From the NCBI GenBank assembly GCA_964578645.1, contig CAZODR010000003.1:13951-77950 (forward strand): DNA of 64,000 bases, in the 5' to 3' direction. This DNA comes from an uncultured Candidatus Saccharibacteria bacterium (GTDB taxonomy: Bacteria; Patescibacteriota; Saccharimonadia; Saccharimonadales; Saccharimonadaceae). The notes under the pieces were generated by a model. It did not search any database, was not told the DNA's origin, and saw only the letters and a list, made by a program, of their open reading frames with translations. Below are positions 8,040-55,828 of the stretch, one piece after another. The position numbers and the translations under genes were made by a program. The first letter of the stretch is position 1. Each line of letters begins with the position of its first letter.

Positions 8040-9461
8040 ATGTCAAAAGTTTATCTCTGCACCGCGATTCCTTATGTGAACGGCAATCCTCATATTGGTC
8101 ATGCTTTAGATTATCTTCTCGCCGACACTTATGCGCGTTTTCGCCGCGATCTCGGCGATGAAGTGCGACTCCAAGTCGGTACTGATGAGCATGGCAACAA
8201 AGTTTTTCGCAGCGCCGAGAAAAATCATCTATCCGTCGAAGATTACGCTACAAAAAATTCGGCGAAATTTCACGATTTTATCCAAAAATTAAACATCAGC
8301 TACACGGATTTTATCCGCACGACTGATGCTGACCATGTGCGCCGATGCCAAGCGATTTGGGAGAAGCTCGCTCCGCATATTTATTCCGCGGAGTATGATG
8401 GCTGGTACTGTGAAGGTTGCGAAAGTTTCGTGACCCAAAAAGAATATGACGAATGCGAGGGAATCTGTCCCGATCACCAAAAGCCTTATGAAAAATTAAG
8501 CGAGAAAAATTATTATCTCCGGATTTCCGACTTTAAGGACGAAATTCGCGACCAGATTGAGCGCGACAAACTCGAAATCCTTCCCGTATTTCGCAAGAAA
8601 GAAGTCCTGCGTCTGCTCGAAGATGCTCCGGACGTTTCGATTTCGCGTCCGCGTGGCCAGCTCAGCTGGGGCGTCCCCGTTCCTGGCGACGATAGCCAGG
8701 TCATGTATGTCTGGCTTGATGCCTTGAGCAACTATATCACTGTTTTGGGCTATCCCGATCACGATATTTCCGAGTTCTGGCCAGCCACGGCGCAATTTAT
8801 CGGCAAAGACATTCTGCGTTTCCACGCCATTATTTGGCCCGCAATTTTGCTCGGTCTCGGTCTGCCGCTCCCCCAGCGCCTCGTTACGCATGGTTACGTG
8901 CTTGCAGACGGGCAAAAGATGAGCAAAAGCATCGGTAATGTCGTCGATCCGATCTCGGTTATCGATCGTCATGGTCTCGAGGCTTTTCGTTATTTCTTTT
9001 TGCGCCATGTCGACACTTTCGCTGACTCCGATTTTACTTGGGAAAAGTTCGATCGTGCTTATAATAATGAGCTTGCGAACGACCTCGGCAATCTCGTCCA
9101 GCGTTTGGCTGCGATGTGCAAGAAAAATCACATCGTCGGTCGAGAATCCGAGGGTGAGCTCAGCCCAGAGTATACCGAACTTATGGCAAATTTTCAATTC
9201 ACGAAAGCGTTTAATTACATCTGGAAAGACATCCAAAGCCTAAATAAGCGCATTGATGAAGAAAAGCCTTGGGAACTCGCCAAAGCTGGCGAAACCGCCA
9301 AGGTCGAACAAGTGCTTGGCTCGCTTGTTGATGGGTTGCTTGTTGTTGCGAAAATGCTACGGCCTCTGTTGCCGGATACCGCGAGCAAAATCACTGCAAT
9401 CTTTAGCGTCCAAGACATAATTAGCCCAGGCGAAGCGCCACTATTCCCTAAGGAACGCTAA
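8040..9461 (+). CDS. metG: Methionyl-tRNA synthetase
   Basis: Class I HIGH-type motif (NGNPHIGH) and KMSKS. TGTGCTATAAT lies 8 nt upstream of the ATG. Confidence 0.93.
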   Translation: MSKVYLCTAIPYVNGNPHIGHALDYLLADTYARFRRDLGDEVRLQVGTDEHGNKVFRSAEKNHLSVEDYATKNSAKFHDFIQKLNISYTDFIRTTDADHVRRCQAIWEKLAPHIYSAEYDGWYCEGCESFVTQKEYDECEGICPDHQKPYEKLSEKNYYLRISDFKDEIRDQIERDKLEILPVFRKKEVLRLLEDAPDVSISRPRGQLSWGVPVPGDDSQVMYVWLDALSNYITVLGYPDHDISEFWPATAQFIGKDILRFHAIIWPAILLGLGLPLPQRLVTHGYVLADGQKMSKSIGNVVDPISVIDRHGLEAFRYFFLRHVDTFADSDFTWEKFDRAYNNELANDLGNLVQRLAAMCKKNHIVGRESEGELSPEYTELMANFQFTKAFNYIWKDIQSLNKRIDEEKPWELAKAGETAKVEQVLGSLVDGLLVVAKMLRPLLPDTASKITAIFSVQDIISPGEAPLFPKER

Positions 9462-9554
9462 GTCGACCCGGTTAGCGAAGGCATGGGGCGCGGGCATTCT
9501 TCTGCGCGCCCCACCCCATAACTCGGCGCATTGCACCACGCAATCCTCAGTCCC

Positions 9555-11543
9555 CTAGTTGCTCGCCCCTAACCAATATTTCTTTCCGCTCGACAAGTCA
9601 TAATTCACTAGCTCGTACTCGTCCAGCACGTCCGTGACCTCTAGCGGATTTTCCTCATTATAGAAACTTGGAGCTAAGATCGGCGCATCCTCACAAACCG
9701 CATCTTCGAGATACATCAGCGTCGGTTTTTGCGACCCAATCAAATCATACATCGTATTCACTAGACAATTCGGGCTCACCGTTGGCAAATCCACTCCCTT
9801 GACCATTGAAAAGTCGAATCCTAATTCTTGATTCAGCTCCTTTACAGCGTCCTTGCTAAACCTATTTTCCAAATCAAAATTCGCATAGACAAAGTACGGC
9901 GTCAAATGCACTAAATTAACCAAACTTTGATCATCCGAAGTCGCATAATCGCTCAACGCCCCCGCCGCATGATCCCCAAACCAAATCACTACCGTCCTCT
10001 CATCCAACTTATCCAACTTCTCGATAAACTCCCCGAGATATTCATCCGCATGATGCATATTCTCATATGTCAACTCAACATCATCACCATGCCAGACATT
10101 ATCCTTCTTTAGCTTAAACTGCCGTGTAGAATATTTCGCAGAATCAAACGGCGTATGATTCTGGATCGTAATCGCTCCGATCGCCTGCGGCTCTTTCTCG
10201 TCTTCCAAAATCTTCAAGATCTGTTTATAAACTGATTCATCACTAACGAAACCATTACCGTTTTCCTTCTCCGCAAAATCCATCGTATTAATATCAAGAA
10301 ACTCATCGAATTGCATCGCCGGATAAACTAGGTTACGCTTATACATCGTGCGGTTAAACGGATGCAGCGCCGTAGTCTGGAAATCATTTTCTTTCGCGTA
10401 GCTAATTAATCCCGGCAAAACTTTTAGCTTACTTGCAAAAGTCGCGTACGGAACCGTCTGCGCCCAATAATTCGACAATCCTGTAAACGCCGAGAACTCT
10501 ACATTTGCCGTATTTCCGCCATATTCCGGCGAATACATATATCCGCTAGGATATTTCTCAAAAATCTTATGCAAATTCGGCGTCACGTCTCCGCCCGTAT
10601 GCTCATATTGTTCGCCCAAAACTGCCGGATCATAAAAACTTTCATTCATAATAAAGACCACATTGTCCGCGACCTGACTAAGAGGCTTACGTTTCGCATC
10701 GTCTTTCTGCTTCTCGGCTCGATATTTTTGCGCAATCTCTTCGACGCGCTCCTTGCTATAATCTTCCGGCGCTTCTAATTTCAACGATCCCAAATCACGC
10801 ATAAACGCAATAATATAACCGTTCTGCTCATAATTCATCGATTGATTACAAAGTTCGAATTTCAATCCTTCGAGCCAAGGCAGTTCTTCCTCCGTCCGGT
10901 TATGTACGACAGGATCGGCCAGCATTACTAGCGCCGTCACTGCGATTAAAACGAAGCTCAGTCGCGGTACAATCTCAAATCTTTCCCACCAAACTCGTTC
11001 TTTAGAATTATACCCCACCAATTTTTTAGCATAATGTTCCAGCAAAATCGCGCCAATAATTACTAGGATAATTCCGATAGCCAACCGCACGACCTCGCGC
11101 ATATCGACGAATTCCATCAACGCGCCGTCCGCCAGCTGAAAATCCCCCGGAACCAACGGCGTGCTACGAAACTTATACTTTTGTGTATTCGCATACATTA
11201 AAGCCGCCAACCCCGAAAACACCAGCGCCGTGCTCAGGAAAGGTTTCCACAAAATCGCGCTCAGCGTCACCAAAATCAACAAAATAATCAAACAGCTATA
11301 ACTAAACAGCGCCGGCTTTTCCTGAATATAATTCATCACCTCCCCCGCGTCCTGATTATATTGCTGCCACAATACAAACCATCCCAAAATCAAGGACATA
11401 ATTATCAAAAACAAAAACGACAACAAAACTCGCAGAATCGTCGGCATCGCATGTCGCGATTTTTCTTCCAGCTGCTCTTCCTTCGAAATCAGTTCCGCTT
11501 CCTTTGTGTTTTTATCGACCGAATTTTTCACGTTTTTCTTCAT
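9555..11543 (-). CDS. LTA-synthase/sulfatase-family membrane protein
   Basis: N-terminal multi-TM region plus an extracellular sulfatase-like domain (MNESFYDP, GGNTANVEFSAFTG). Start moved to MKKNVKN (11543), 9 nt after TATAAT. Confidence 0.8.
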   Translation of the reverse strand: MKKNVKNSVDKNTKEAELISKEEQLEEKSRHAMPTILRVLLSFLFLIIMSLILGWFVLWQQYNQDAGEVMNYIQEKPALFSYSCLIILLILVTLSAILWKPFLSTALVFSGLAALMYANTQKYKFRSTPLVPGDFQLADGALMEFVDMREVVRLAIGIILVIIGAILLEHYAKKLVGYNSKERVWWERFEIVPRLSFVLIAVTALVMLADPVVHNRTEEELPWLEGLKFELCNQSMNYEQNGYIIAFMRDLGSLKLEAPEDYSKERVEEIAQKYRAEKQKDDAKRKPLSQVADNVVFIMNESFYDPAVLGEQYEHTGGDVTPNLHKIFEKYPSGYMYSPEYGGNTANVEFSAFTGLSNYWAQTVPYATFASKLKVLPGLISYAKENDFQTTALHPFNRTMYKRNLVYPAMQFDEFLDINTMDFAEKENGNGFVSDESVYKQILKILEDEKEPQAIGAITIQNHTPFDSAKYSTRQFKLKKDNVWHGDDVELTYENMHHADEYLGEFIEKLDKLDERTVVIWFGDHAAGALSDYATSDDQSLVNLVHLTPYFVYANFDLENRFSKDAVKELNQELGFDFSMVKGVDLPTVSPNCLVNTMYDLIGSQKPTLMYLEDAVCEDAPILAPSFYNEENPLEVTDVLDEYELVNYDLSSGKKYWLGASN

Positions 11544-11627: not shown

Positions 11628-12518
11628 TTATTCAGCATTATAGTCGTCACAATCATATCCACCATCGCTCAAACGTGTCGCAATGTCAGAAATGAAGAAA
11701 CCGACAATTCCGCCGACAATCGGTACGATTACATACGCCGCAATCGCCATTCCGGCTAGACCAGCCAATTCGCCAAATCCTTCCGCAGTCGTTGGCAAGA
11801 TCTGATACATCAAAGCCGTAGCTGGGTTAAACATAAAGCTGTTCCCGAGACCGAAAAAGCTCTGTGCAATGACAATCCCGAAAATAATCGCCAAAGTCAT
11901 ACCGCTAGTCACGGTCAAAGCGAAGCTCACGGGACTCTTGCGCGAAAAACGCAAAGCGCGCGCATAGCAGAACGCAATCACAATCGCGCCGAGCAACTCG
12001 ACCAAAGCCACTGCCCAGAAAGTCTCGCCGGCGATTTCGTCCATGATTGGCAATTCTGCCGAAGTTTGGCTACCGAGACGGAAAGCGTTGATGATAATCA
12101 ACCCGATCCAAGCGCCGAGAACCTGTGCCAACATATAGAGAACGCCCCGAATCGCCGACATCCGGCGTGTCGCCATCATCCCAGCGGTCACCAGCGGATT
12201 CAAATTCGCCCCCGAAATCCCGACCACCGCAATATAGACGCCGATTGCTGCAAAGATTAGATATAGCGGTTGCACTCCAAGCGTGAGCAGCAACATGACG
12301 ATTAGCATCGTACCAATCAACTCTCCAGCGAGCGCGCCCCAGATCTTCCGTGTCTTAAAAATTGTCAAAATATTTTCATTTTCGTCGCATTTACGCGCGA
12401 AAAAACCTTTTTTCGGAGCTTCGGCAGTGGCTGTCTTTTTCGACGCAATCACCTCACTCTTACTTTCTGGTTTAGCTGAAGACTTTTTCGTCGTCTTCTT
12501 TGGCTTCTGATTTGCCAT
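11628..12518 (-). CDS. MIP-family channel (aquaporin/glycerol facilitator)
   Basis: Two NPx motifs (NLNPLVT, FNPATAL) and 6 TM segments. AAGGAGG SD precedes the tandem ATGs; the ORF-track start lies inside the TGTGCTATAAT promoter. Confidence 0.85.
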   Translation of the reverse strand: MANQKPKKTTKKSSAKPESKSEVIASKKTATAEAPKKGFFARKCDENENILTIFKTRKIWGALAGELIGTMLIVMLLLTLGVQPLYLIFAAIGVYIAVVGISGANLNPLVTAGMMATRRMSAIRGVLYMLAQVLGAWIGLIIINAFRLGSQTSAELPIMDEIAGETFWAVALVELLGAIVIAFCYARALRFSRKSPVSFALTVTSGMTLAIIFGIVIAQSFFGLGNSFMFNPATALMYQILPTTAEGFGELAGLAGMAIAAYVIVPIVGGIVGFFISDIATRLSDGGYDCDDYNAE

Positions 12519-12615
12519 CATAACCTCCTTAACAATAATATTCCCGCTCATTATAGCACACATATGTTACAATTGAAAAGTACAAAGTTAAGCGTAAGAT
12601 CTAAGGAAATCAATT

Positions 12616-13886: not shown

Positions 13887-16364
13887 ATGAAAATATCCCT
13901 GAATGAAATCAAAAAATACGTTAAAATCCCTGAAAAAGTCTCAGATCATGAGCTAATTGAGCTCATCGGCTCGCGCTTAGTCGAGATCGAAGAAGTCATC
14001 GATCTCGGCCCGAAATATCAGGGGATTTATATTGTAAAAGTCGTGAATTGTGAACCTATCCCCGAGACCCATTTGAGCCGCTGTGAGATTGATTGCGGCG
14101 AGCATAATTCGGATTATAATCAGCTCGAAAACGGTTTGGTGCAGGTTGTCTGCGGCGCGCCCAATGTCCATGCTGGCATGCTCGCGGTCTGGATTGCCCC
14201 GGCCAGCATCGTCCCTGAGACTTATGGCAACGAAAATTTCAAGCTTAGCGTGCGCAAATTGCGTGGCTCCGAATCGAATGGGATGCTGGCCGGGGCCGAC
14301 GAACTCGGCTTCGACAACGAACATAAGGCCATCGCCGAAATCGATCCGAAGACCAGTGTGGCGGACAAGGAGAGCGGTTCTAGCCGTCCAGTGCGGGCGG
14401 GCGATGCGTTGAGCGAAGTTTTTGATCTCGACGACATCATTCTTGATGTCGAGAATAAGTCGCTCACGCATCGCCCGGACTGTTTCGGGCTGATTGGTTT
14501 TGCGCGCGAGGTTGCCGGAATTCTGGGCATCGACTTTGTCGAACCGGAAGTTTTTCAGGACGAGCGCCTGCCAAAAGTGAAGCCCGCCCTGTCTCTAGAA
14601 GCGCAGATCGTCGATGCCCAGCTTTGCCCGCGTTATTCTTGCGCTGTGTTCGATTTGAAAGATAATACGCCTAGCAAATATCTTACGTCGTCGACCATTT
14701 TCCTCGCCAAAGCCGGAATGCGCGCGATTGATCCTATGGTGGATTTGACCAATATTCTTATGCTTGAAACTGGCCAGCCTCTGCATGCTTTTGATTATGA
14801 TAAATTGGTCGCGGTCGGCGGTGAAGATTCGGCAAAAATCATCGTTCGCGCTGCGACCGAAGGCGAGCCTTTGCAGCTGCTGGACGGAAAAACTATTTCT
14901 TGTATCACCGATGATATTTTGATTACCTCGAATAATGTTCCGGTCGCGCTCGCCGGCGCTATGGGCGGCAAAAACACTGAAATCGATGCCAGTACGCGGC
15001 GCGTCGTCCTCGAGAGCGCGACCTTCTCGCTTTACCATTTGCGCAAAACTCAAATGGCGCATGGTATTTTCTCTGAAGCCATTACCCGTTTCACGAAGGG
15101 TCAACCCGCCGCGATGACCGGTCGCGTGCTCGCCGAAGCCCTGAAGCGTCTCGCTGTCGGACCATTGGCGCTGGTCGACGAGTTTCCTGAACCAGAGAAA
15201 GAAAATGCGATCGAAGTTAGCGTCGACCAAATCAACTCCCTTCTCGGTACGGATTATAGCGTTGAGTTGATTGCCCAGACATTGTCAAACGTTGGGTTCG
15301 TAATCAAGGTTAATGAGGACCATCTCCGCGTCGTCGTCCCGGATTGGCGCACCGATGTCCATCTCGCCGAAGATGTCATCGAAGAAGTCGGGCGTTTACT
15401 TGGTTTTGATAATATTCCGTTGCGTTTGCCCCTGCGCGAGTTTATCGAGGCGGAGGTCGACCCGCTGATTAAGCTAAAGAATGAGTTACGCGAAGTTTTG
15501 TCGGGCAGCTTAGGCATGAATGAACTTCTGACTTATTCCTTCGTCAGCCGCAATCTGATTGTGAATGTTGGCAAGGACCCGGACGATTGCTATGAAATTA
15601 CTAATTCGATCTCGCCGGAGCTGCAGTGTTTCCGTTCCGAAATTGTCCCCAGCCTCCTAGACAAAGTTCGTGAGAATTTGAAATCGGGGCATGAGAATTT
15701 CTGTCTCTACGAAATGAACCAGATTGCGCGGCGGGGCAGCGGGCTGGATGCTGAAGGCGTGCCAAAGTTGCGTAGTCATCTCGGCGTGGTTAATCTTGGC
15801 GACTTTTACGATTTGAAAGCCAAGATTATGGCTCTGTTTCGCGCATTGAAACTTGATCTCGAATATCTCGCCTTGACTCCTGAAGCGGCCGCGCGCCATC
15901 CTTATCTAGAGCCTAAACGCTCGGCGATTATCGTCGTCGATGGGAAAGTGGTTGCGGCTTTTGGCGAAGTGCGCACAGCGGTTTTGCGCCGTTTTAAGCT
16001 CGATCAAGTCGTCAGCGCTCTCGAGCTCAGTCTCGACAAAATCGTCGCGGCGCCGCGCTCAGAAAAAGTTGATTTCCAGTTCTCGAAATTCCCGTTCGTC
16101 GAGCGTGATATTACCCTTCGCGTTGATGCTATGACACCTTTTGGCCGCATTGACCAGGAGCTAGTAGCGGTCTTGAAAGCCGAGAATCTGATTTCTTCCG
16201 TCACTCCGCTCTCGATCTACCAAGCCGAAGATTCGTCGAGAAAGCACCTTTCTTTCCATCTCAAGTTCTCTGATCCCGAAAAAACTTTGAATTCCGAGGA
16301 GATCTCTGCTATAATGGACAAAATTACTACTGCCATGGCGTTGACTGGCGCTGAGACGATATAA
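13887..16364 (+). CDS. pheT: Phenylalanyl-tRNA synthetase beta subunit
   Basis: 825 aa with an N-terminal tRNA-binding domain, B3/4 and B5 regions. Position is directly after pheS. Confidence 0.92.
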   Translation: MKISLNEIKKYVKIPEKVSDHELIELIGSRLVEIEEVIDLGPKYQGIYIVKVVNCEPIPETHLSRCEIDCGEHNSDYNQLENGLVQVVCGAPNVHAGMLAVWIAPASIVPETYGNENFKLSVRKLRGSESNGMLAGADELGFDNEHKAIAEIDPKTSVADKESGSSRPVRAGDALSEVFDLDDIILDVENKSLTHRPDCFGLIGFAREVAGILGIDFVEPEVFQDERLPKVKPALSLEAQIVDAQLCPRYSCAVFDLKDNTPSKYLTSSTIFLAKAGMRAIDPMVDLTNILMLETGQPLHAFDYDKLVAVGGEDSAKIIVRAATEGEPLQLLDGKTISCITDDILITSNNVPVALAGAMGGKNTEIDASTRRVVLESATFSLYHLRKTQMAHGIFSEAITRFTKGQPAAMTGRVLAEALKRLAVGPLALVDEFPEPEKENAIEVSVDQINSLLGTDYSVELIAQTLSNVGFVIKVNEDHLRVVVPDWRTDVHLAEDVIEEVGRLLGFDNIPLRLPLREFIEAEVDPLIKLKNELREVLSGSLGMNELLTYSFVSRNLIVNVGKDPDDCYEITNSISPELQCFRSEIVPSLLDKVRENLKSGHENFCLYEMNQIARRGSGLDAEGVPKLRSHLGVVNLGDFYDLKAKIMALFRALKLDLEYLALTPEAAARHPYLEPKRSAIIVVDGKVVAAFGEVRTAVLRRFKLDQVVSALELSLDKIVAAPRSEKVDFQFSKFPFVERDITLRVDAMTPFGRIDQELVAVLKAENLISSVTPLSIYQAEDSSRKHLSFHLKFSDPEKTLNSEEISAIMDKITTAMALTGAETI

Positions 16365-28472: not shown

Positions 28473-29471
28473 ATGAAAAAAATCTATAGTCTAATTTGCG
28501 CAGCTTTCGTAGCATTATCTAGCCTCGCTCTCGCCCCCTCGGCCGTTTTCGCCGAGGGGGAGGGGGAAGCTGAAACTCCCGAAACCTGGCTCCAGCTCTC
28601 ACCGACCGCGACCACAGTTATCCTCAAGGGTGGCGACGTCATCATGGGTGATTCCCAGGATTGCGATAGCGACATCGGCGAAGGCTGCGTCGTCAAGGTG
28701 ACGAATATCGGTAGCCGCAGTTTTAAATATCGCATCTATGCTTCGCCCTATGTCGTCGAGAACGATGGCACGGTGACTTTTGATTCGAATTCGACGAAAT
28801 CATACACCCAAATTGCTCGCTGGATCACCTTCCAAGACGACAGCGGCAGTTTTCAAAAAGAGCTCGTGAAGAGCATTAATCCTGGCGAATCCCAGATTAT
28901 TAATTATCGTATCGATGTCCCCGAAGACGTCCCTGGCGGCGCGCAATATGCCGCGATCTGGGCCCAAACCATTAGCGACCAGCAACAAACCGGGACCGGC
29001 GTCCAGACGATTTCCCAGGCCGGAATGGTGGTTTCTGGGCGTTCGATCGGTACGACTCGCCAGACGGCCGAGATTTCCGATTATGATTTCACGCGTTTCG
29101 CTTTCGCCGCACCTTTGACCGCGCATGCACATATGAAAAACACTGGTAATACCGATTTCGATATCCATTATTCATACGTCGCCCGCACCATTTTCGGAAA
29201 AGAACTTTATAATGACACGAAATCAATTGTCGCCTTCCCGGAAAGCGATCATGATATTGATGTCAGTTGGGAAAATACCCCTCTGCTCGGCATCTTCCAG
29301 GTCGAATTCAGCGTCAATGGCGGAGACGTGAACGTTAGCGAAAAGCATATTGTGGCTATAATTCCAATTTTTGTGCTAATTTTGTTAATTTCACTATTGA
29401 CAGTCATAATTCTGTGGATTATAATCATAATCAGAAAACGCAAAGAGCGCAAAGCTCGCACCCTCGTATAG
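28473..29471 (+). CDS. Second DUF916/DUF3324-like secreted, TM-anchored surface protein
   Basis: Paralogue of 27517..28449 (IDVPEDVPGGAQYAAIW, KNTGNTDF). C-terminal TM plus RKRKERKAR tail. Start moved to MKKIYSL behind AGGAGG. Confidence 0.85.
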   Translation: MKKIYSLICAAFVALSSLALAPSAVFAEGEGEAETPETWLQLSPTATTVILKGGDVIMGDSQDCDSDIGEGCVVKVTNIGSRSFKYRIYASPYVVENDGTVTFDSNSTKSYTQIARWITFQDDSGSFQKELVKSINPGESQIINYRIDVPEDVPGGAQYAAIWAQTISDQQQTGTGVQTISQAGMVVSGRSIGTTRQTAEISDYDFTRFAFAAPLTAHAHMKNTGNTDFDIHYSYVARTIFGKELYNDTKSIVAFPESDHDIDVSWENTPLLGIFQVEFSVNGGDVNVSEKHIVAIIPIFVLILLISLLTVIILWIIIIIRKRKERKARTLV

Positions 29472-29579
29472 TGGAAGATACGAAGCGAGCAGCCGTAATA
29501 CTATTGCGAGTAGTATTTTCTGCGAGACGGCCGCTCTAGCGAATTCAAAATAAAAATTAAAAAGAAAAGAGTGTAGAGT

Positions 29580-30539
29580 ATGCAAAAAACAAGAAAGCAG
29601 ATCCTCGGGATTGCAGGTTTGCTCGCTGTCGGCGTAATGACTGCCGTCGCTTGCGCTATGCCAACGCCGAACGCAGCGGCCGCTGAAGGGGATCATAATG
29701 TTGATATTAATGTCACGATTCGTGAGGGCGCCCCGCGTATAAAAATCAATAGCCCGCTCGACAATAGTTCGACCCTCGATCCTACGGTGACGACTAGCTA
29801 TACCTACGAGGACGTCGTGCGCGTCGAGACTCACCTGATTTATACTGACGATTCTGGTAAGGAAATCGACACTATTATCGATACCTTCGTCCCGACCGAA
29901 AAATATGGCACGCGTAGCTTCCCAACTGATCTTAGCAGCCTCGGTTATCGCGATTATCGTATCAAAACTGTCGGTTATAGTAATGGTGGCACTGCTCGCG
30001 AGGATACAGTCTCCTTCAACTACCGCGCTATCAAAGCTGACTTCGACCGCGGTGTGAACGAGAAAAACGATCCTATCCTCAGCGTCGAAGCTAATGCTGA
30101 CGTCGAAAAGGTCCAAGTCCAAGTTTACGGCAAGGACGGGAAACCGCTTTTCGTGAACAAAGATGGCAAAGAGGTCCCAGTAGTGATCAATCGTAGTGCC
30201 ATCGATCCGACGACCGGGAAGTTTACCGTGGCTCTGCCTTTCGGCGAATACGGCGCCGCTGATGGCGAATATACCGCCGTCATAGTCGCCTACAACGCAA
30301 AAGACGACATCATCTCGATGGTCACCTTGCCCGTTAAGTATTCCAAGACCGGCTCGACTGGCGGCGATGGGACGACGACTCCCGGCCAGGTCACGCCAGA
30401 AACTCCGAATACCGGCTCGACGATCTTCGGTAGTTTGACCCGAATCGATTATATCATTACCGCAATTGTCGCTTTCATGGTTGCCGCTGGTTTCGCCGTC
30501 TTCCTAGTAATGCGTAATCGCAAGCACCAAAACCAATAA
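29580..30539 (+). CDS. Secreted surface protein with C-terminal PNTG sorting signal
   Basis: Signal peptide and Ig-like beta-rich body. C-terminus is TPETPNTGS, then a hydrophobic helix, then RNRKHQNQ. Confidence 0.85.
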   Translation: MQKTRKQILGIAGLLAVGVMTAVACAMPTPNAAAAEGDHNVDINVTIREGAPRIKINSPLDNSSTLDPTVTTSYTYEDVVRVETHLIYTDDSGKEIDTIIDTFVPTEKYGTRSFPTDLSSLGYRDYRIKTVGYSNGGTAREDTVSFNYRAIKADFDRGVNEKNDPILSVEANADVEKVQVQVYGKDGKPLFVNKDGKEVPVVINRSAIDPTTGKFTVALPFGEYGAADGEYTAVIVAYNAKDDIISMVTLPVKYSKTGSTGGDGTTTPGQVTPETPNTGSTIFGSLTRIDYIITAIVAFMVAAGFAVFLVMRNRKHQNQ

Positions 30540-30727
30540 AATACCAAATTTAACATCAAAAGGTCAAAAAACTGCTCTTCGGGGCGGTTTTTTGATGAAA
30601 TTAACTGACTTTTTGTCAAAAAACCGCCCTTTTCCCCTAAAAACCCCGGAAAAGCTTGACTTTTTCATAATTCTTTGATATAATGGTATTATATAGTCAA
30701 ATAATCTGAGTAGAGTTGGAGTTAGAG

Positions 30728-31558
30728 ATGACAATCAAAAAACAATCAATCTTTGCGGCGTTTTTGCTCGCATCGATCATCGGGCTTTCTATCCCGATGG
30801 AATTGGCTATGGCCGACGGGCCGGATGCTTCCGAAGGCGAGGAAAAACCTGGCGGCGATGCCGATGAAAACCAGCCAGAACCGGACAATCCTGGGACCGG
30901 TGAAGAGCCGACCCCGCCCGGTCCAGGGACGACCGAACCCGGCGACAATACCGGAACTGGCACGGGGACAAATACTGGCGACGATGGCGCTGGGACGACT
31001 AAACCTGGGAACAAACCTTCCGTTGATGATTCGAAGCAGCCGGACGCGAGCAACCCCGGAGCTGGTACTTCGAAGCCTAGCGATTCGGCGGGCAATTCGC
31101 ATAATTCCGGCAGCTCTAGCAATAACTCCGCCAGCTCGAATAGTAATAATTCTGGGCGCAATACTCAGGGAACAGGTAGCAGCGCGACCGCCGGCCGCTC
31201 GGAGTCCGATGCCAACGGCGCGGCCGCGACCAGCGCAGCTGACGCTGCGGACGAAACTGACGCTGCGCTCGCCGACGACGACGAAAGCCCAGCCGTCCCG
31301 AAACTTTCCAGCGCTAGCAAACCCCAATCCTCCGAAAAAGGCGAGCGCAAGTTCAATCCTTGGAGTCTAGCGGCTGTTTTTGGGCTGGTCGCGGCCGCTG
31401 TTGGGGGCATCGCGGTGGCCGCCACAATCTGGCTCAAGCATTCCGTGCGATCGGCCGACCCCGACTTCGTCGCGGATTCAGATCGCGATGCCCCCAATTC
31501 CAAATCTAATTCTGGTTCCAGCTCTAATTCCAACTCTGATTCTGCTGCCGAATCTTAA
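30728..31558 (+). CDS. Secreted low-complexity (G/T/P/S/N/D-rich) protein with TM helix near the C-terminus
   Basis: Signal peptide MTIKKQSIFAAFLLASIIGLSIP, acidic low-complexity body and TM AAVFGLVAAAVGGIAVAATIW. Its own promoter is TTGACT-17-TATAAT. Confidence 0.75.
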   Translation: MTIKKQSIFAAFLLASIIGLSIPMELAMADGPDASEGEEKPGGDADENQPEPDNPGTGEEPTPPGPGTTEPGDNTGTGTGTNTGDDGAGTTKPGNKPSVDDSKQPDASNPGAGTSKPSDSAGNSHNSGSSSNNSASSNSNNSGRNTQGTGSSATAGRSESDANGAAATSAADAADETDAALADDDESPAVPKLSSASKPQSSEKGERKFNPWSLAAVFGLVAAAVGGIAVAATIWLKHSVRSADPDFVADSDRDAPNSKSNSGSSSNSNSDSAAES

Positions 31559-32184: not shown

Positions 32185-32335
32185 TATAATACAAGAATCT
32201 GGGTCGGCAGCGCAGCTGCTGTCCGAGGCGCTCGTCGCCGAGAAAGATCTAGATTAAGCACTGCTCTAACCAGCTGAGCATAAAAATGCTGGAAAGGTAG
32301 AAGCATAACCTTCATAAAAGCTTCATTAATAATCT
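32185..32335 (+). promoter_or_regulatory. tRNA-Lys promoter plus unusual ~135-nt leader holding a partial tRNA 5' copy and an inverted D-arm copy
   Basis: TGTGCTATAAT at 32181..32190. AATCTGGGTCGGCAGCGCAGCTG (32196..32219) repeats 32331..32354. 32263..32279 is the exact reverse complement of the tRNA D-arm 32345..32361. Confidence 0.6.
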
Positions 32336-32412
32336 GGGTCGGTAGCTCAGCTGGTTAGAGCACGGGCCTTTTAAGCCCGGTGTCGAGGGTTCGAGCCCCT
32401 CCCGACTCACCA
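32336..32412 (+). tRNA. tRNA-Lys (anticodon TTT)
   Basis: Hand-folded cloverleaf: acceptor GGGTCGG/CCGACTC, anticodon arm CGGGC-CTTTTAA-GCCCG, T-arm GAGGG-TTCGAGC-CCCTC, encoded CCA. Confidence 0.9.
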
Positions 32413-32480
32413 CTATAGAATAAAGAAGCCCTCTGGGCTTATTTATTTTATAGTGTAGGCGGATCAAACCAATATAGGTT
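32411..32480. repeat. ~70-bp direct repeat, copy 1 (starts in the tRNA-Lys CCA end and includes its terminator hairpin)
   Basis: CACTATAGAATAAAGAAGCCCTCTGGGCTTATTTATTTTATAGTGTAGGCGGATCAAACCAATATAGGTT recurs at 33471..33540 with 6 mismatches. Confidence 0.85.
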
Positions 32481-32533
32481 GCCCCTCCGATCTGAAATTA
32501 TCCTTACAATGAGGCTCCCTTGCTACATATACT

Positions 32534-32725
32534 CTAATTAGCCAGGCAGCGGAGAGAAAGACTTGTCCAACGGTCGCTGCCGTTGGCTGGATTAACTTTA
32601 GTACTGTTGATGCCGAGAACGTAGGCGCCTGCATCATTGACGAGTGACCGGGACGACCAGGGATAGCTGGATTCGCCATAGCCGCACAGTCTATTAGTAT
32701 TAATGTTTATCCAGCCGCTGCGCAC
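32534..32725 (-). CDS. FISUMP-like C-terminal cassette B (63 codons, GTG start, own promoter module)
   Basis: VRSGWININTNRL...WSS...GAYVLGINSTKVNPANGSDRWTSLSLRCLAN with conserved 5' and 3' boundary blocks. Confidence 0.45.
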   Translation of the reverse strand: MRSGWININTNRLCGYGESSYPWSSRSLVNDAGAYVLGINSTKVNPANGSDRWTSLSLRCLAN

Positions 32726-32789
32726 ACTACAGATCGAGCCTCGTTGAGGCCTATACTACTATTGTAGCACAGCTTATGCTTTTTGTCAA
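32726..32789 (-). promoter_or_regulatory. Cassette promoter plus 5' hairpin leader (drives cassette B)
   Basis: The minus strand reads TTGACA-17-TACAAT, then GTATAGGCCTCAACGAGGCTCGATCTGTAGT directly before the GTG. Confidence 0.7.
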
Positions 32790-32903
32790 GATATTTCGGC
32801 AAAATTTGACAGAATTGCTAGGTTCTGGGGAGATTTTGGACAATTTTATGGAATTGCTAAATTTTAGGTGGACTTTACTAGTTTATTGCTAGCTACATAT
32901 ACT

Positions 32904-33095
32904 CTAATTAGCCAGGCAGCGGAGAGGAATACCAAAGAAACGATTGCCACGATCTGACGGCTTGAGGTATCTGCCGGTGAAGCTGAGGAAGTAGATATCA
33001 GCATCTTTTAGATCGGGCCACGATCCCCAAGCATAGCCGTCTGCACTGGAATATTTTTGTGTGCCCTCATTGATTTTGACAACGCCGCTGCGCAC
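32904..33095 (-). CDS. FISUMP-like C-terminal cassette C (63 codons, no promoter of its own; tandem behind D)
   Basis: VRSGVVKINEGTQ...YAWGS...IYFLSFTGRYLKPSDRGNRFFGIPLRCLAN with conserved boundary blocks. Confidence 0.4.
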   Translation of the reverse strand: MRSGVVKINEGTQKYSSADGYAWGSWPDLKDADIYFLSFTGRYLKPSDRGNRFFGIPLRCLAN

Positions 33096-33106
33096 AAAAC
33101 AACTTT

Positions 33107-33177
33107 GGATAGGTTAAGGATTAGATATTTTGCTTGTCCAGAATAAGCAACCAAACTAAGTAGTCCTTAACTTATCC
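33107..33177. repeat. Inter-cassette spacer hairpin (13-nt arms) between D and C
   Basis: GGATAGGTTAAGG ... CCTTAACTTATCC. The same architecture lies between F and E, with a compensatory AAAG/CTTT change. Confidence 0.7.
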
Positions 33178-33190
33178 TGCTACATATACT

Positions 33191-33385
33191 CTAATTAGCC
33201 AGGCAGCGGAGAGGAAAACCGTAGTAACGATAGCCGTTGACGTCCGACGGGCCGACGATACTACCATTGAAGTCGAGACGGTGGGCATTGATACCACTTG
33301 CGCGCGACGAAGATGACCAGGCGCAGCCAACGATGCCAGAGTACCACAGCTTACCGTTATTGATACTGACGAAGCCGCTGCGCAC
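33191..33385 (-). CDS. FISUMP-like C-terminal cassette D (near-identical twin of A)
   Basis: 33177..33388 equals 24621..24832 except for 1 nt (A at 33217, G at 24661). Identity ends exactly at the unit borders. Confidence 0.45.
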   Translation of the reverse strand: MRSGFVSINNGKLWYSGIVGCAWSSSSRASGINAHRLDFNGSIVGPSDVNGYRYYGFPLRCLAN

Positions 33386-33470
33386 AAAATTATATACATC
33401 CACATCCGTATAAATCGTGTAGAATCATGGTGCATGGCATTATCTTTGTATCATCTGTGACGTCTATACA

Positions 33471-33540
33471 CACTATAAAATAAAGAAGCCCTCTGGGCTT
33501 ATTTATTTTATGGTGCAGGTGGATCGAATCAATATAGGTT
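33471..33540. repeat. ~70-bp direct repeat, copy 2
   Basis: Matches 32411..32480. Together the two copies bracket the B-C-D cassette block. Confidence 0.85.
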
Positions 33541-33685
33541 CGTCCTCGGTAGGAGGCGAGCGAAAAGTAGAATTTGCCCTAGCTTTTCCGATCCGGCGCT
33601 TAATTTCAAGACCAAGAGCCAGGTCGTTGCCGCTTATCTCACTCTCCGCCCCGACGACCGTGCGCCGTATGCTGAGTTTATTGAA

Positions 33686-36652: not shown

Positions 36653-36688
36653 CCCAGCGTCTAGCATTTTCTCCATGCTACATATACT

Positions 36689-36880
36689 CTAATTAGCCAG
36701 GCAGCGGAGAGGAAAGGCGTGCCAACGACTGTCGCCGTACGACGGGTAGACGTTACTACCATTGAAGACGAGGCGGTAGGCGCCGATGCCATTAGAATTT
36801 GGCCAAGAAGACCATTCACCCCCATCGCTGCCAGAGATCTCCAGCTTACCGCTATAGATATAAACGAGGCCGCTGCGCAC
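36689..36880 (-). CDS. FISUMP-like C-terminal cassette E (tandem behind F)
   Basis: VRSGLVYIYSGKLEISGSDGGEWSS...GAYRLVFNGSNVYPSYGDSRWHAFPLRCLAN with conserved boundary blocks. Confidence 0.4.
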   Translation of the reverse strand: MRSGLVYIYSGKLEISGSDGGEWSSWPNSNGIGAYRLVFNGSNVYPSYGDSRWHAFPLRCLAN

Positions 36881-37053: not shown

Positions 37054-37067
37054 ATGCTACATATACT

Positions 37068-37259
37068 CTAATTAGCTAGGCAGCGGAGAGGAAAGACATC
37101 CCGACGAGCATTGAGGTTTGAAGAATTTATATAATCACCGTTGAAATACAAACTATAAGCGCTAATACCGTCCAAATGCGATTTAGACGACCAACTATGG
37201 TTATCCGTACCAGAGAGCCACAACTTGCCCATAGTAATATTAATTATGCCGCTGCGCAC
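37068..37259 (-). CDS. FISUMP-like C-terminal cassette F
   Basis: VRSGIINITMGKLWLSGTDNHSWSS...SAYSLYFNGDYINSSNLNARRDVFPLRCLAN. The 3' block has one substitution (CTAGCT). Confidence 0.4.
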   Translation of the reverse strand: MRSGIINITMGKLWLSGTDNHSWSSKSHLDGISAYSLYFNGDYINSSNLNARRDVFPLRCLAN

Positions 37260-37272
37260 TAGAATCCCTAAT

Positions 37273-37295
37273 AATGTTGTAAAAATTACGACATT
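37273..37295. repeat. Imperfect copy of the AATGTTGTAAA..TTTACAACATT palindrome
   Basis: AATGTTGTAAAAATTACGACATT, in the same position relative to cassette F and the G promoter as 24840..24862 has relative to cassette A. Confidence 0.8.
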
Positions 37296-37362
37296 TAGAG
37301 CTAAAAAATCGGTAAATTTCTCCTATAATTTGGTAAATTTGTCAAAAGTCTCCCAAAGCCTA

Positions 37363-37426
37363 TTGACAAAAAGCATAAGCTGTGCTACAATGAGGGTATA
37401 AGCCTCATCGAGGCTCAATCTGTAGT
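37363..37426 (+). promoter_or_regulatory. Cassette promoter plus 5' hairpin leader (drives cassette G)
   Basis: TTGACA-17-TACAAT with TGTG, then GTATAAGCCTCATCGAGGCTCAATCTGTAGT before the GTG. Confidence 0.7.
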
Positions 37427-37618
37427 GTGCGCAGCGGCTATAATGATATCAATCGGGGCAAACTGATGAGCTCTGGTATGGACGGGCACGGACGGTCATC
37501 TTGGGCAGATTCTAATGACGCCTATGCTTACTACCTTGCCTTCATTAATAGCGGCGTCTACCCGTCATATAACAGCGATCGTTTTTTCGGCTTCACTCTC
37601 CGCTGCCTGGCTAATTAG
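37427..37618 (+). CDS. FISUMP-like C-terminal cassette G (plus strand)
   Basis: VRSGYNDINRGKLMSSGMDGHGRSS...AYAYYLAFINSGVYPSYNSDRFFGFTLRCLAN with conserved boundary blocks. Confidence 0.45.
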   Translation: MRSGYNDINRGKLMSSGMDGHGRSSWADSNDAYAYYLAFINSGVYPSYNSDRFFGFTLRCLAN

Positions 37619-37694
37619 AGTATACATAGCAAGAGCAAACGTCGCAGCTTATAATTTACAACAAAAAAGAGCCACAAACGGCTCAATTCGCCTC

Positions 37695-55571: not shown

Positions 55572-55600
55572 TTGACAAAAAGCGAAATCTGTGCTACAAT
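55572..55600 (+). promoter_or_regulatory. Consensus promoter (module family) with no ORF behind it
   Basis: CTATTGACA-17-TACAAT with TGTG extended -10. Confidence 0.7.
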
Positions 55601-55605
55601 GGGAG

Positions 55606-55727
55606 TATAGGGTAATTCTACCCTAAAATTTTGAGACCTTTGCTGAGCGAAGGTTCAGCATCTCGACGCAGCCTGGATTAACGCTGCTCTCGAAGCCCTT
55701 CAGGCCCGCCTTTTCAGGCGGGCCTTT
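55606..55727 (+). ncRNA. Candidate ~120-nt small RNA (promoter to terminator, non-coding)
   Basis: Starts with the hairpin TAGGGT-AATTCT-ACCCTA and has a second hairpin ACCTT-TGCTGAGCG-AAGGT. Ends with the GC-rich stem AGGCCCGCC-TTTTCA-GGCGGGCCT followed by TTTCT. Only a 16-codon TTG ORF without SD is present. Confidence 0.45.
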
Positions 55728-55828
55728 CTATACCCCTAAACCTCCGACCCGGCCGATGGATGTCTCGGCTTTATCATTCTGGAAAACCTTTCCTGTGCTA
55801 TAATGGAAAAGTAAATAAGGAGTTTTTT

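Follow-up and report, generated by a model that had tools for sequence, protein, structure and literature searches.

The DNA considered here, a stretch of 64,000 nucleotides (nt) referred to as the window (positions 13,951 to 77,950 of contig CAZODR010000003.1, assembly GCA_964578645.1, from an uncultured Candidatus Saccharibacteria bacterium), contains seven short repeat units, A to G, which probably represent copies of the variable repeat (VR) of a diversity-generating retroelement (DGR) acting on a FISUMP-type surface lectin. All of them are intergenic. Each unit is delimited by a 12-nt 5' block (GTGCGCAGCGGC), of which the window has seven copies, all exact, against an expectation of 0.55, and by a 35-nt 3' block (CTCTCCGCTGCCTGGCTAATTAGAGTATATGTAGC), which likewise occurs seven times (five exact copies, one with a single mismatch and one with two mismatches) and is absent from shuffled sequences. 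A 3' block follows each 5' block on the same strand at a distance of 192-195 nt (Table 1). The cores between these borders measure 157-160 nt and show a pairwise identity of 43-70%, with one 3-nt indel in A/D and a single-base difference between units A and D.

An open reading frame (ORF) runs through all seven units and translates as VRSG...(P/S/T)LRCLAN, and the differences between the units are evenly spread over the three codon positions (0.48/0.40/0.52). The 3' block continues beyond this frame and ends 12 nt past the stop codon; in unit B, for instance, the stop codon ends at 32534 and the block at 32522. Its terminal part, GGCTAATTAGAGTATATGTAGC, constitutes a specific tail that is unlike the corresponding tail of the template-type copies described below (...GGTGCCGATCTTT). 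The only inverted repeat of the units is the 7-nt pair GCAGCGG/CCGCTGC at the two borders.

An earlier note on this DNA had reported identical borders around divergent cores in units B, C and D and four further copies at 24.6 kb and 36.7-37.6 kb; both statements hold for the full set, the additional copies being A, E, F and G. Its view of the units as promoterless, start-less C-terminal fragments of a FISUMP-type lectin also stands, as no in-frame start other than the border GTG, no Shine-Dalgarno (SD)-like motif and no N-terminal domain was found upstream of the window units, and a search of the window for the N-terminal part of a FISUMP protein recovered none. The 20 nt by which it let the 3' block extend past the stop codon have to be corrected to 12 nt.

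Distribution of the units and constraint on their borders

A scan of DNA from one genome per species with the pattern GTGCGCAGCGG-N156-186-CTCCGCTGCCT recovered at least 103 blocks of 8 kb, nearly all of them from about ten Candidatus Saccharibacteria metagenome-assembled genomes; the few matches in Actinomycetota are out-of-frame chance matches. Among the matches listed there are many blocks per genome, with up to 7 units in 8 kb, and dozens of such units per genome are found across Candidatus Saccharibacteria. A profile of six window peptides recovered 138 database proteins, all of 62-112 aa, whose common part extends from FVRSG to GFPLRC(L) only and is preceded by unrelated residues. The units have entered public databases as 60-110-aa 'hypothetical proteins'; as repeats they also break assemblies, several contigs ending inside units.

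A hidden Markov model (HMM) of the unit identified 205 units in the DNA examined. VRSG is present in 194 HMM hits and encoded as GTG CGC AGC GGN in 192 of them; for LRCL the codons are CTC CGC TGC CTN in 180/186. Among the border codons the fourth alone varies, and only in its wobble position; phylum-wide, V, R and S show no synonymous change. Such near-invariance of codons indicates that the borders are constrained as nucleic acid and not as protein. The segments from border to border are open in frame in 178 of 184 cases, against 8.6% by chance, and the open stretch upstream of the units has a median of 12 codons and a maximum of 99 (181 units). The +1 frame is also stop-free in 182/184 unit cores, and the +2 frame has stops in 142; the stop-free +1 frame is probably a by-product of NNY-rich codons.

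Neither a conserved SD nor another purine-rich signal was detected upstream of the units, and a consensus promoter precedes 3 of 167 units, two of which are in the window. The units often adjoin tRNA genes and terminator hairpins. Adjacent units are inverted relative to each other in 49 cases and in tandem in 10, and head-to-head gaps can be as small as 12-17 nt. Examples of pairs with 5' anchors 14-17 nt apart (CCGCTGCGCAC-N14-17-GTGCGCAGCGG) are seen at L024:3373-3408, L047:5826-5864, L076:2535-2572 and L088:1908-1945.

The full-length gene and its hypervariable tail

Searches of the units against Pfam and NCBIfam gave no hits even at E<=10. The unit HMM, in turn, matches the C-termini of 400-740-aa proteins encoded in the same genomes (E 4e-15 to 2e-8), which possess a signal peptide, an Ig-like N-terminal domain and a FISUMP domain. 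These long proteins match the TIGR02145 (Fib_succ_major) model over positions 42-175 of 176 with E-values of 2.6e-12, 1.7e-9 and 8e-35, and some homologs carry PF09603. As judged by these profile matches, the relationship of the units to the FISUMP domain is real but transitive: the similarity proposed in the earlier note is borne out through the long proteins and not by a direct search with the units. In most of the long FISUMP proteins the codons at the border positions differ from those of the units.

A gene with the same nucleotide borders was sought in metagenomes by requiring ICPKGW 120-150 nt upstream of the 5' block, and such a full-length recipient was recovered in the sister lineages L110, L112, L114 and L007. 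L110 and L112 agree at every base of nt 1-1955 (100% identity), and homology between them ends exactly at GTGCGCAGCGG; a 70-kb contig of L114 has this gene together with its flank, and in L007 the same locus is cut by the contig end. Thirteen alleles of this gene from one 90% cluster, on contigs of up to 283 kb, do not vary in residues 1-487, as far as ...APLYFVRSG, nor in the terminal PLRCLSTVLGM; the 60-70 aa between these two parts are hypervariable, with indels. The L114 contig and the alleles on contigs of up to 283 kb rule out that L112 is an assembly chimera. Four other protein clusters display the same layout of invariant and hypervariable parts, and the expressed VR differs in nearly every sample. 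An expression locus outside the window, which the earlier note had postulated, is thus found in sister lineages, and it varies between samples exactly between the two borders. In L111/L113 a long copy is present at a second locus, with 216 nt of 5' and about 150 nt of 3' homology, and L111 and L007 have the 5' half of the core in common and differ in the 3' half.

The tail type of the window itself is known in full-length form only from P0131, a 570-aa protein encoded outside the window, which ends in the window-type ...PLRCLAN and has 67% protein identity with E across the length of the unit. The full-length gene of the window's organism would be predicted to end in ...PLRCLAN plus TAGAGTATATGTAGC. 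In a structure model of P0131 the fragment corresponding to a unit forms the last five strands of a larger domain. Residues ~60-215 of the same model form a high-confidence Ig-like fold, the N-terminal domain, for which the best matches in a Foldseek search against the PDB are chaperone-usher pilins, Caf1 and TasA fibres. These matches hint that P0131 might be displayed on, or as, a fibre. The same search returned nothing useful for the lectin domain. The window gene at 25063-25701 was considered as a truncated N-terminal part of a FISUMP protein, but a BLASTP comparison with P0131 (E=0.36) does not support this. In L114 the target gene is flanked by two small CdiA_C ORFs (9387-9782 on the minus strand and 12123-12557 on the plus strand; Pfam E 5e-14 and 1.5e-12), which are inverted relative to each other with 109-nt arms that are 71% complementary.

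Reverse transcriptase, template repeats and adenine-specific changes in sister genomes

A reverse transcriptase (RT) of 413 aa is encoded 1.1 kb from the 3' end of the expressed gene in L114 (Pfam RVT_1, 37 bits). It contains the DGR motif IGNLTSQ and a YVDDF motif. The best PDB match comes from the 8ub7 series: its 328-aa RT (E 4e-21) aligns as IGSLTSQ, and we take it for the bRT of the Bordetella DGR. Matches to Drt2, retron or group II RTs reach E 5e-4, 17 orders of magnitude behind. The same RT lies next to units in L007, L006 and L019. No Avd-like small gene was seen at the DGR RT loci. In two lineages a 332-337-aa ORF overlaps the start of the RT (L114:13978-14976, minus strand; L019:155-1168, plus strand); searches with it in Pfam, NCBIfam and PADLOC gave no hit, and it is possibly a new DGR accessory protein. 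Just 3' of the RT gene, where a template repeat (TR) would be expected, L114 (12596-12695) and the same region of L007 have a GC-rich direct repeat of 34 nt in two exact copies (GGCGACTTCGTTCCGCCGGGAATGGGGCCGAGCC), which lie 66 nt apart, with a T-run at the end, a region that could possibly specify an RT-associated structured RNA. No TR was found near the L114 RT.

In the L019 genome a TR is situated close to the RT (Table 1). It reads VRSGNVNINNSKLRNSGQNGYNWSSMSNSNTNNAYNLNFSGSGVNPSNNNNRWNGFPLRC, has the highest A content of all units, and possesses a 3' tail that contains GGTGCCGATCTTT and agrees with the usual tail only up to CTAGC. Altogether eight Asn-rich, TR-type units with the common tail CCGCGGYGGGGTGCCGATCTTT were recovered, with a mean of 11.8 AAY codons against 5.3 in the others. 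The TR-type tail can be described as ...CTCCGCTGCC followed by N14-23 and GGTGCCGATCTTT, and the VR-type tail as CT(A/G)GCTA(A/G)TTAGAGTATA(G/T)GTAG... or CTGAGTACTGTATTAGGGATGTGAGGAG. The 3' ends of VRs and TRs are therefore distinct, in the manner of the initiation of mutagenic homing (IMH) sequence and its IMH* counterpart, and all seven window units are of the VR type.

Comparison of six units of the L019 genome with this TR showed changes at 29-44% of adenines and at 0-13% of other sites; in numbers, five to six VRs of this genome (MGBC128931) have 15-23 A-site changes as against 0-11 non-A changes. The spectrum of changes from TR to VR is A->G 61, A->T 53 and A->C 7. The alleles of the expressed gene correspond to different TR families: L112 mismatches the TR L058 at 14/38 A sites and 10/148 other sites, L113 mismatches the TR L043 at 14/39 A sites and 13/168 other sites, and the alleles P0244 and P0250 match an L072-type TR. 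The genome MGBC140031 contains at least five TR-type units, of 180-207 nt, and this presence of several TRs of different length in one genome accounts for the indels between alleles.

The window units as probable DGR variable repeats

DGRs work by transcription of an Asn-rich TR, which the RT copies with random misincorporation opposite adenines; the cDNA so formed then takes the place of the homologous sequence in a target. Homing requires that TR and VR agree at both ends, and it is a VR-specific 3' end, the IMH, that makes a copy a recipient. We consider it likely that the seven window units are VR-type copies of a Saccharibacteria DGR that diversifies the C-terminal, ligand-binding part of a FISUMP/CLec2-type lectin, an assignment that for the window rests on homology. 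RT, TRs, adenine-specific differences between TR and VR, orphan VRs and a hypervariable expressed gene all occur in sister genomes, and the same RT, TRs and expressed gene are presumably located elsewhere in the genome to which the window belongs. That these three components of the window's own genome were not seen is the reason for keeping the assignment short of certainty.

Under this interpretation the 5' anchor (TTY)GTGCGCAGCGG and the 3' end CCCYCTCCGCTGCC would be the constant ends of TR and VR, frozen as nucleotides because the two must match at both ends, and the VR-only tail past the stop codon would be an IMH-like end marking a copy as a recipient. The divergence of the cores would follow from descent from adenine-mutagenised cDNA, combined with several TRs of different length per genome. 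The mechanism could thereby account for frozen borders, for conservation past the stop codon and for cores that diverge and still remain in frame. The copies in the window are orphans, cut a few nt 5' of the anchor and about 12 nt 3' of the stop codon.

The window units themselves can be compared with the L019 genome. Their tail is homologous to its VR-type tail (CTGGCTAATTAGAGTATATGTAGCAGG against CTAGCTAGTTAGAGTATAGGTAGTAGG), and the L019 TR, heterologous but of the same length class, is the only comparable TR and served as reference for an adenine test. Units D and E differ from this heterologous TR at 59% of its adenines, compared with 30% of the remaining positions (p=8e-4 for each unit), unit G is marginal (p=0.056), and the six window units pooled against the same reference give an odds ratio of 1.96 (p=1.8e-6).

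Several observations weigh against the assignment. The 64-kb window contains no RT detectable by tblastn, no TR-type tail motif and no Asn-rich unit, and units B, C and F show no significant adenine-site enrichment against the heterologous L019 TR. The even distribution of differences over codon positions is not that of a single-TR DGR, which would favour positions 1 and 2; it fits several source TRs and some age rather than one recent TR. Instead of forming the 3' end of a gene, as a canonical DGR target does (typically a gene for a C-type-lectin or Ig fold), the window units have stops or non-coding DNA immediately upstream, and it is only in the expressed genes of L110, L112, L114 and L007 and in P0131 that the repeat occupies a gene's 3' end. 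Moreover, the VR-type tail cannot derive from TR cDNA, so that DGR homing alone fails to explain the multiplication of the copies, and at least those orphans that recur between samples are not being diversified at a visible rate.

Truncation, selection and stability of the orphan copies

Five of the six TR-matching VRs of the L019 genome are orphans with stop codons immediately upstream, sharing with the TR only 3-9 nt 5' of the anchor. Other copies extend further in the 5' direction, to ...YNIAAAPLYF, to KGW (L108) or to AGSGG (L111/L113), and the 5' ends of orphans are thus ragged, the homology with the gene upstream of the anchor ranging from none to over 200 nt. At the other end, orphans of sister genomes have about 30 nt of common VR-type tail beyond CTCCGCTGCC; as they end in VR-type sequence, they are not plain TR cDNA.

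The distribution of changes within the orphan cores is informative. Adenines of AAY codons are changed in 48% of orphans, and two synonymous third-position adenines (GGA and TCA) are changed in 2/5 and 3/5 orphans. Ten nonsynonymous adenines of the scaffold outside AAY codons (I8, S11, K12, Q18, M26, T31, Y35, S42...) are changed in 0/5, which under uniform mutagenesis has a probability of ~0.52^50. Since scaffold adenines are unchanged and synonymous ones changed, the orphan cores appear to have gone through selection at the protein level. Individual orphan sequences recur unchanged on 24-53 contigs. Substitutions common to the expressed VR and orphans number 8/11, 8/11 and 7/9, in runs, a modest excess over the expected 0.45; TR families together with adenine mutagenesis explain the alleles, and no expression-site allele that must be a mosaic of orphans was found. 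The selection signature of the orphans hints, however, that some exchange with the expressed gene, in one direction or the other, is possible.

Taken together, these features suggest that each orphan might be a snapshot of the hypervariable expressed VR in a selected state, which was transferred to intergenic DNA as a copy and has since been largely static. Their borders would be identical because the borders of the source never vary, and their cores would differ because the core of the source always does; we infer both the snapshot origin and the copying route. It is conceivable, if on balance doubtful, that the whole constitutes a two-tier system, in which a multi-template DGR hypermutates the lectin tail and successful variants are archived as orphans and re-enter the gene by recombination or re-homing. 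Copying-out in such a system might proceed via the same RT acting on the 3' end of the target, or via capture of the displaced VR strand. If true, this would be a retroelement-based system with a memory of selected specificities.

Alternative explanations

The earlier note had read the units as silent donor cassettes, an orphan archive that recombines into an expressed FISUMP gene through the borders as the main source of diversity. Much of the architecture is congenial to this proposal: the copies have neither promoter nor start, carry the same borders as the expression locus and number dozens in a small genome; the long L111/L113 copy has homology on both sides, L111 and L007 have only half of the core in common, the orphans, as expected of donors, stay the same from sample to sample in contrast to the expressed VR, and their cores bear the signature of protein-level selection. 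Yet recombination does not produce differences between VR and TR that are specific to adenines, the length classes of the alleles match distinct TRs and not orphans, no allele was found that needs an orphan donor, the sharing of substitutions exceeds expectation only modestly, and 5' homology of 11-12 nt is short for RecA-type exchange. With an RT, Asn-rich TRs and adenine-specific differences in sister genomes, a TR/VR relationship takes the place of donor and recipient as the architecture, and we regard recombining donors as the main engine of diversity as unlikely. A further alternative is that each unit is a gene in its own right, encoding from the anchor GTG a 62-64-aa member of a hypervariable lectin-like peptide family. 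The near-universal open frame, the ever-present GTG, the strong promoters at B and G, the pattern of purifying selection in orphans and the 138 short database ORFs speak for it, but a conserved SD or purine-rich signal is missing upstream in a genome that uses SD elsewhere, the residues called upstream of VRSG are unconserved, and in many copies the homology runs 5' of the GTG into ...APLYF. Stop-free cores are moreover expected anyway, mutated AAY codons being unable to become stop codons, and the fragment supplies merely the last strands of a larger domain in the P0131 model. Stand-alone small proteins are hence very unlikely.

Site-specific inversion of the shufflon or vsa/vpma kind would make the 12-nt block a recombination site at which the Xer-like recombinase encoded near unit A flips segments, moving a promoter-leader or a constant part of a gene between cassettes. 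The proximity of this tyrosine recombinase (0.9 kb), the anchors of F and G, which form a perfect inverted repeat of 12 bp with a 167-bp promoter segment in between, the recurrence of the same promoter element in either orientation at the 5' borders of A, B and G, and the preference of adjacent units for inverted order would all be in keeping with it. However, a consensus promoter precedes only three of 167 units, there is nothing to invert where head-to-head units are 12-17 nt apart, the promoter would express a 63-aa fragment without an SD, and the block is also part of TRs, so that matching of TR and VR explains its conservation. The 144-nt, 99% inverted repeats of the recombinase suggest that it serves its two flanking paralogs, and no inversion polymorphism was seen, there being one assembly of the window. 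Both the flipping itself and the transfer of promoters or constant parts by it are accordingly highly improbable. A selfish element resembling a miniature inverted-repeat transposable element (MITE), with terminal inverted repeats GCAGCGG...CCGCTGC and an incidental likeness to a gene fragment, could be imagined for dispersed intergenic copies in high number, often beside tRNA genes and terminator hairpins, with a 7-nt inverted repeat at their borders. We give it hardly any credence: cores within a genome are too divergent and nevertheless in frame with lectin scaffold residues, the 5' end is ragged, the same sequence forms the 3' end of a real gene, and no transposase partner was seen. The border complementarity is explained by the R-S-G and R-C codons together with the TR/VR constraint.

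Other identities were rejected. An RNA gene is not favoured in view of the clear coding-type conservation and of an Rfam scan at gathering thresholds, in which the window yields three tRNAs only. The 5' GTGCG resembles the GUGYG of group II introns, but the lectin-gene homology crosses that point (...APLYF|VRSG) and the unit has only ~200 nt. An integron attC site, an IS200/IS605 element or a repetitive extragenic palindromic (REP)-like element is not indicated either, as the hairpins 5' of the units are unrelated in sequence and resemble neighbouring terminators, and no partner enzyme was found.

Genomic surroundings of the window units

The 3' tail of unit A ends 12 nt after the uvrA stop codon (24610). 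The B-C-D array lies between a tRNA-Lys gene (32336-32412) and a methyltransferase gene and is bracketed by a direct repeat; unit B is tail-to-tail with the tRNA-Lys gene, and E-F-G precede a tRNA-Glu gene with which unit G is tail-to-tail. The partial copy of the tRNA-Lys 5' end and the 77-nt direct repeat are footprints of local duplication or insertion. Units F and G are arranged head-to-head around their promoter segment, the inverted repeat formed by their anchors spanning 37248-37438.

The promoter-leader element consists of TTGACA-N17-TACAAT with an extended -10, followed by GTATA and a short hairpin, and three copies of it abut 5' borders of units. The predicted transcript of the copy at 24.9 kb is only ~90 nt long and ends at a terminator, and a related fourth promoter heads a hairpin-rich untranslated stretch. 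The promoter-leader copies have no Rfam match; they are possible small RNAs. SD sequences are in use elsewhere in the window, as exemplified by AAGGAG before the ORF at 55820.

The tyrosine recombinase near unit A, of the Xer/integron-integrase type, is flanked by two inverted paralogs for secreted proteins, whose 5' ends are spanned by long complementary arms; the region 25063-27408 is a candidate invertible or phase-variable module. It is followed by a run of genes for secreted or surface proteins.

Table 1. Coordinates of the repeat units and of associated features; positions refer to the window unless a prefix is given, and cassette types follow the probable DGR assignment
Feature	Position	Strand	Description
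Unit A	24623-24829	-	orphan VR-type cassette, 64 codons plus tail
Unit B	32522-32725	-	orphan VR-type cassette
Unit C	32892-33095	-	orphan VR-type cassette
Unit D	33179-33385	-	orphan VR-type cassette
Unit E	36677-36880	-	orphan VR-type cassette
Unit F	37056-37259	-	orphan VR-type cassette; 3' block with 1 mismatch
Unit G	37427-37630	+	orphan VR-type cassette; 3' block with 2 mismatches; sole plus-strand unit
5' anchor, example of unit B	32714-32725	-	GTGCGCAGCGGC; codons V-R-S-G; 5' limit of TR/VR homology
3' block, example of unit B	32522-32556	-	CTCCGCTGCC (codons L-R-C-L), common to TRs, then GGCTAATTAGAGTATATGTAGC
Template repeat	L019:2602-2783		270 nt downstream of RT; VRSGNVNINNSKLRNSGQNGYNWSS...NPSNNNNRWNGFPLRC; 19 AAY codons
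77-nt direct repeat with bidirectional terminator	32411-32487	+	partner 33471-33547, 88% identical; brackets B-C-D array
Partial tRNA-Lys 5'-end copy	32193-32218		88%; 135 nt upstream of the real gene
Promoter and hairpin leader	32724-32837	-	TTGACA-N17-TACAAT at 32761-32789; reads into unit B, abuts its 5' anchor
F/G intervening segment, 167 bp	37260-37426	+	flanked by two inverted 12-nt anchors; same promoter (37363-37391) reads into G
Promoter-leader copy at unit G	37345-37439	+	
Third promoter-leader copy	24880-24993	+	beside unit A, points away; ends ...CTGTAGTGT, straight into terminator
Related fourth promoter	55572-55740	+	heads ~150-nt hairpin-rich untranslated stretch ending in terminator
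Tyrosine recombinase, Xer/integron-integrase-like	25717-26712	+	NCBIfam XerA 4.4e-35; 0.9 kb from unit A
Paralogs for 205-212-aa secreted proteins	25063-25701; 26790-27407	-; +	inverted, flanking the recombinase
144-nt arms	25619-25762; 26729-26872		99% complementary; span 5' ends of both paralogs
Secreted/surface-protein genes	27517-31558		run of genes, as in the next three rows
WxL-interacting/Ig-like protein	27517-28449		weak Pfam hits
Two ORFs	28449-29471; 29580-30539		no Pfam hit
Low-complexity protein	30716-31558		P/G/S/N/D-rich; C-terminal membrane anchor

Significance and relationship to known systems

Saccharibacteria are obligate epibionts, and little is understood of how they attach and which hosts they use; they can now be transformed (PMC10633639). 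A surface protein of the present kind, lectin-like, hypervariable and rewritten by a multi-template DGR, is a direct candidate for host recognition. For the biology of DGRs, VR copies outside genes, static orphans with a history of selection and several dispersed TRs per RT bear on target recognition, on the fate of displaced or ectopic cDNA and on the storage of DGR output. The literature on antigenic variation, cassettes, shufflons and DGRs in Saccharibacteria yielded no description of these repeats. While DGRs, CLec2/FISUMP targets, remote targets and DGRs in candidate phyla radiation (CPR) bacteria are already known, dozens of gene-less VR copies per genome, the signature of selection in orphans and several dispersed TRs for one expressed VR were, as far as we could find, not described in the searchable literature.

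Among systems that vary surface proteins, shufflons and the vsa/vpma loci of Mycoplasma resemble the present case in having short inverted sites at the junction of constant and variable parts, a tyrosine recombinase nearby and, as at F/G, one promoter segment between head-to-head cassettes. They differ in that the arrangement described here is not family-wide, the window sites have no constant coding part and no inversion variants were observed. MITEs are near-identical copies with defined terminal inverted repeats and target-site duplications, and neither the identity of the cores nor the ragged 5' ends of the units conform to this. The silent-cassette gene-conversion systems of Neisseria (pilE/pilS), Borrelia (vlsE/vls), Anaplasma (msp2 pseudogenes) and Treponema (tprK donors) come closer, with many promoterless partial copies that have conserved ends and variable centres, one expressed gene, and a host-associated organism with a small genome; in the sister lineages, too, there is a single expression locus with both borders. 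The Sma/Cla repeat of pil loci is a conserved 3' sequence past the stop codon, as in the units. In contrast to these systems, diversity is here made by adenine mutagenesis from templates, and transfer from orphan to gene is only a possibility.

The closest relationship is with DGRs of the CLec2 class. The earlier note knew of no system built on this domain, but DUF1566/DUF823/Fib_succ_major is a recognised class of DGR targets under that name, exemplified by the LdtA DGR of Legionella pneumophila (Wu et al. 2018, PMC5758913). The CLec2 DGRs share with the system considered here the domain class, with the VR at the C-terminus, a variable centre placed between a constant 5' stretch and an equally constant 3' stretch that the IMH encodes, an Asn(AAY)-rich TR, adenine-specific changes from TR to VR and a surface-exposed target. 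Unlike in those DGRs, there are here dozens of VR-type copies per ~1-Mb genome, most of them outside any gene, one expressed VR is served by several TRs (180-207 nt) of a genome, which often lie at a long distance from the RT, and in place of an Avd-like small gene a larger ORF overlaps the RT start. The survey of Wu et al. lists at most 8 tandem or 7 remote targets, and CPR DGRs tend to one target (PMC5758913); its smallest 'target genes', of 44 aa, may include orphans of this kind. The DGRs of Treponema denticola and Thiohalocapsa PB-PSB1 (PMC5758913, PMC10907252) are similar in that one RT/TR set acts in trans on scattered VRs; the remote VRs of those organisms are the 3' ends of complete genes, whereas those of the Saccharibacteria are 5'-truncated intergenic fragments.

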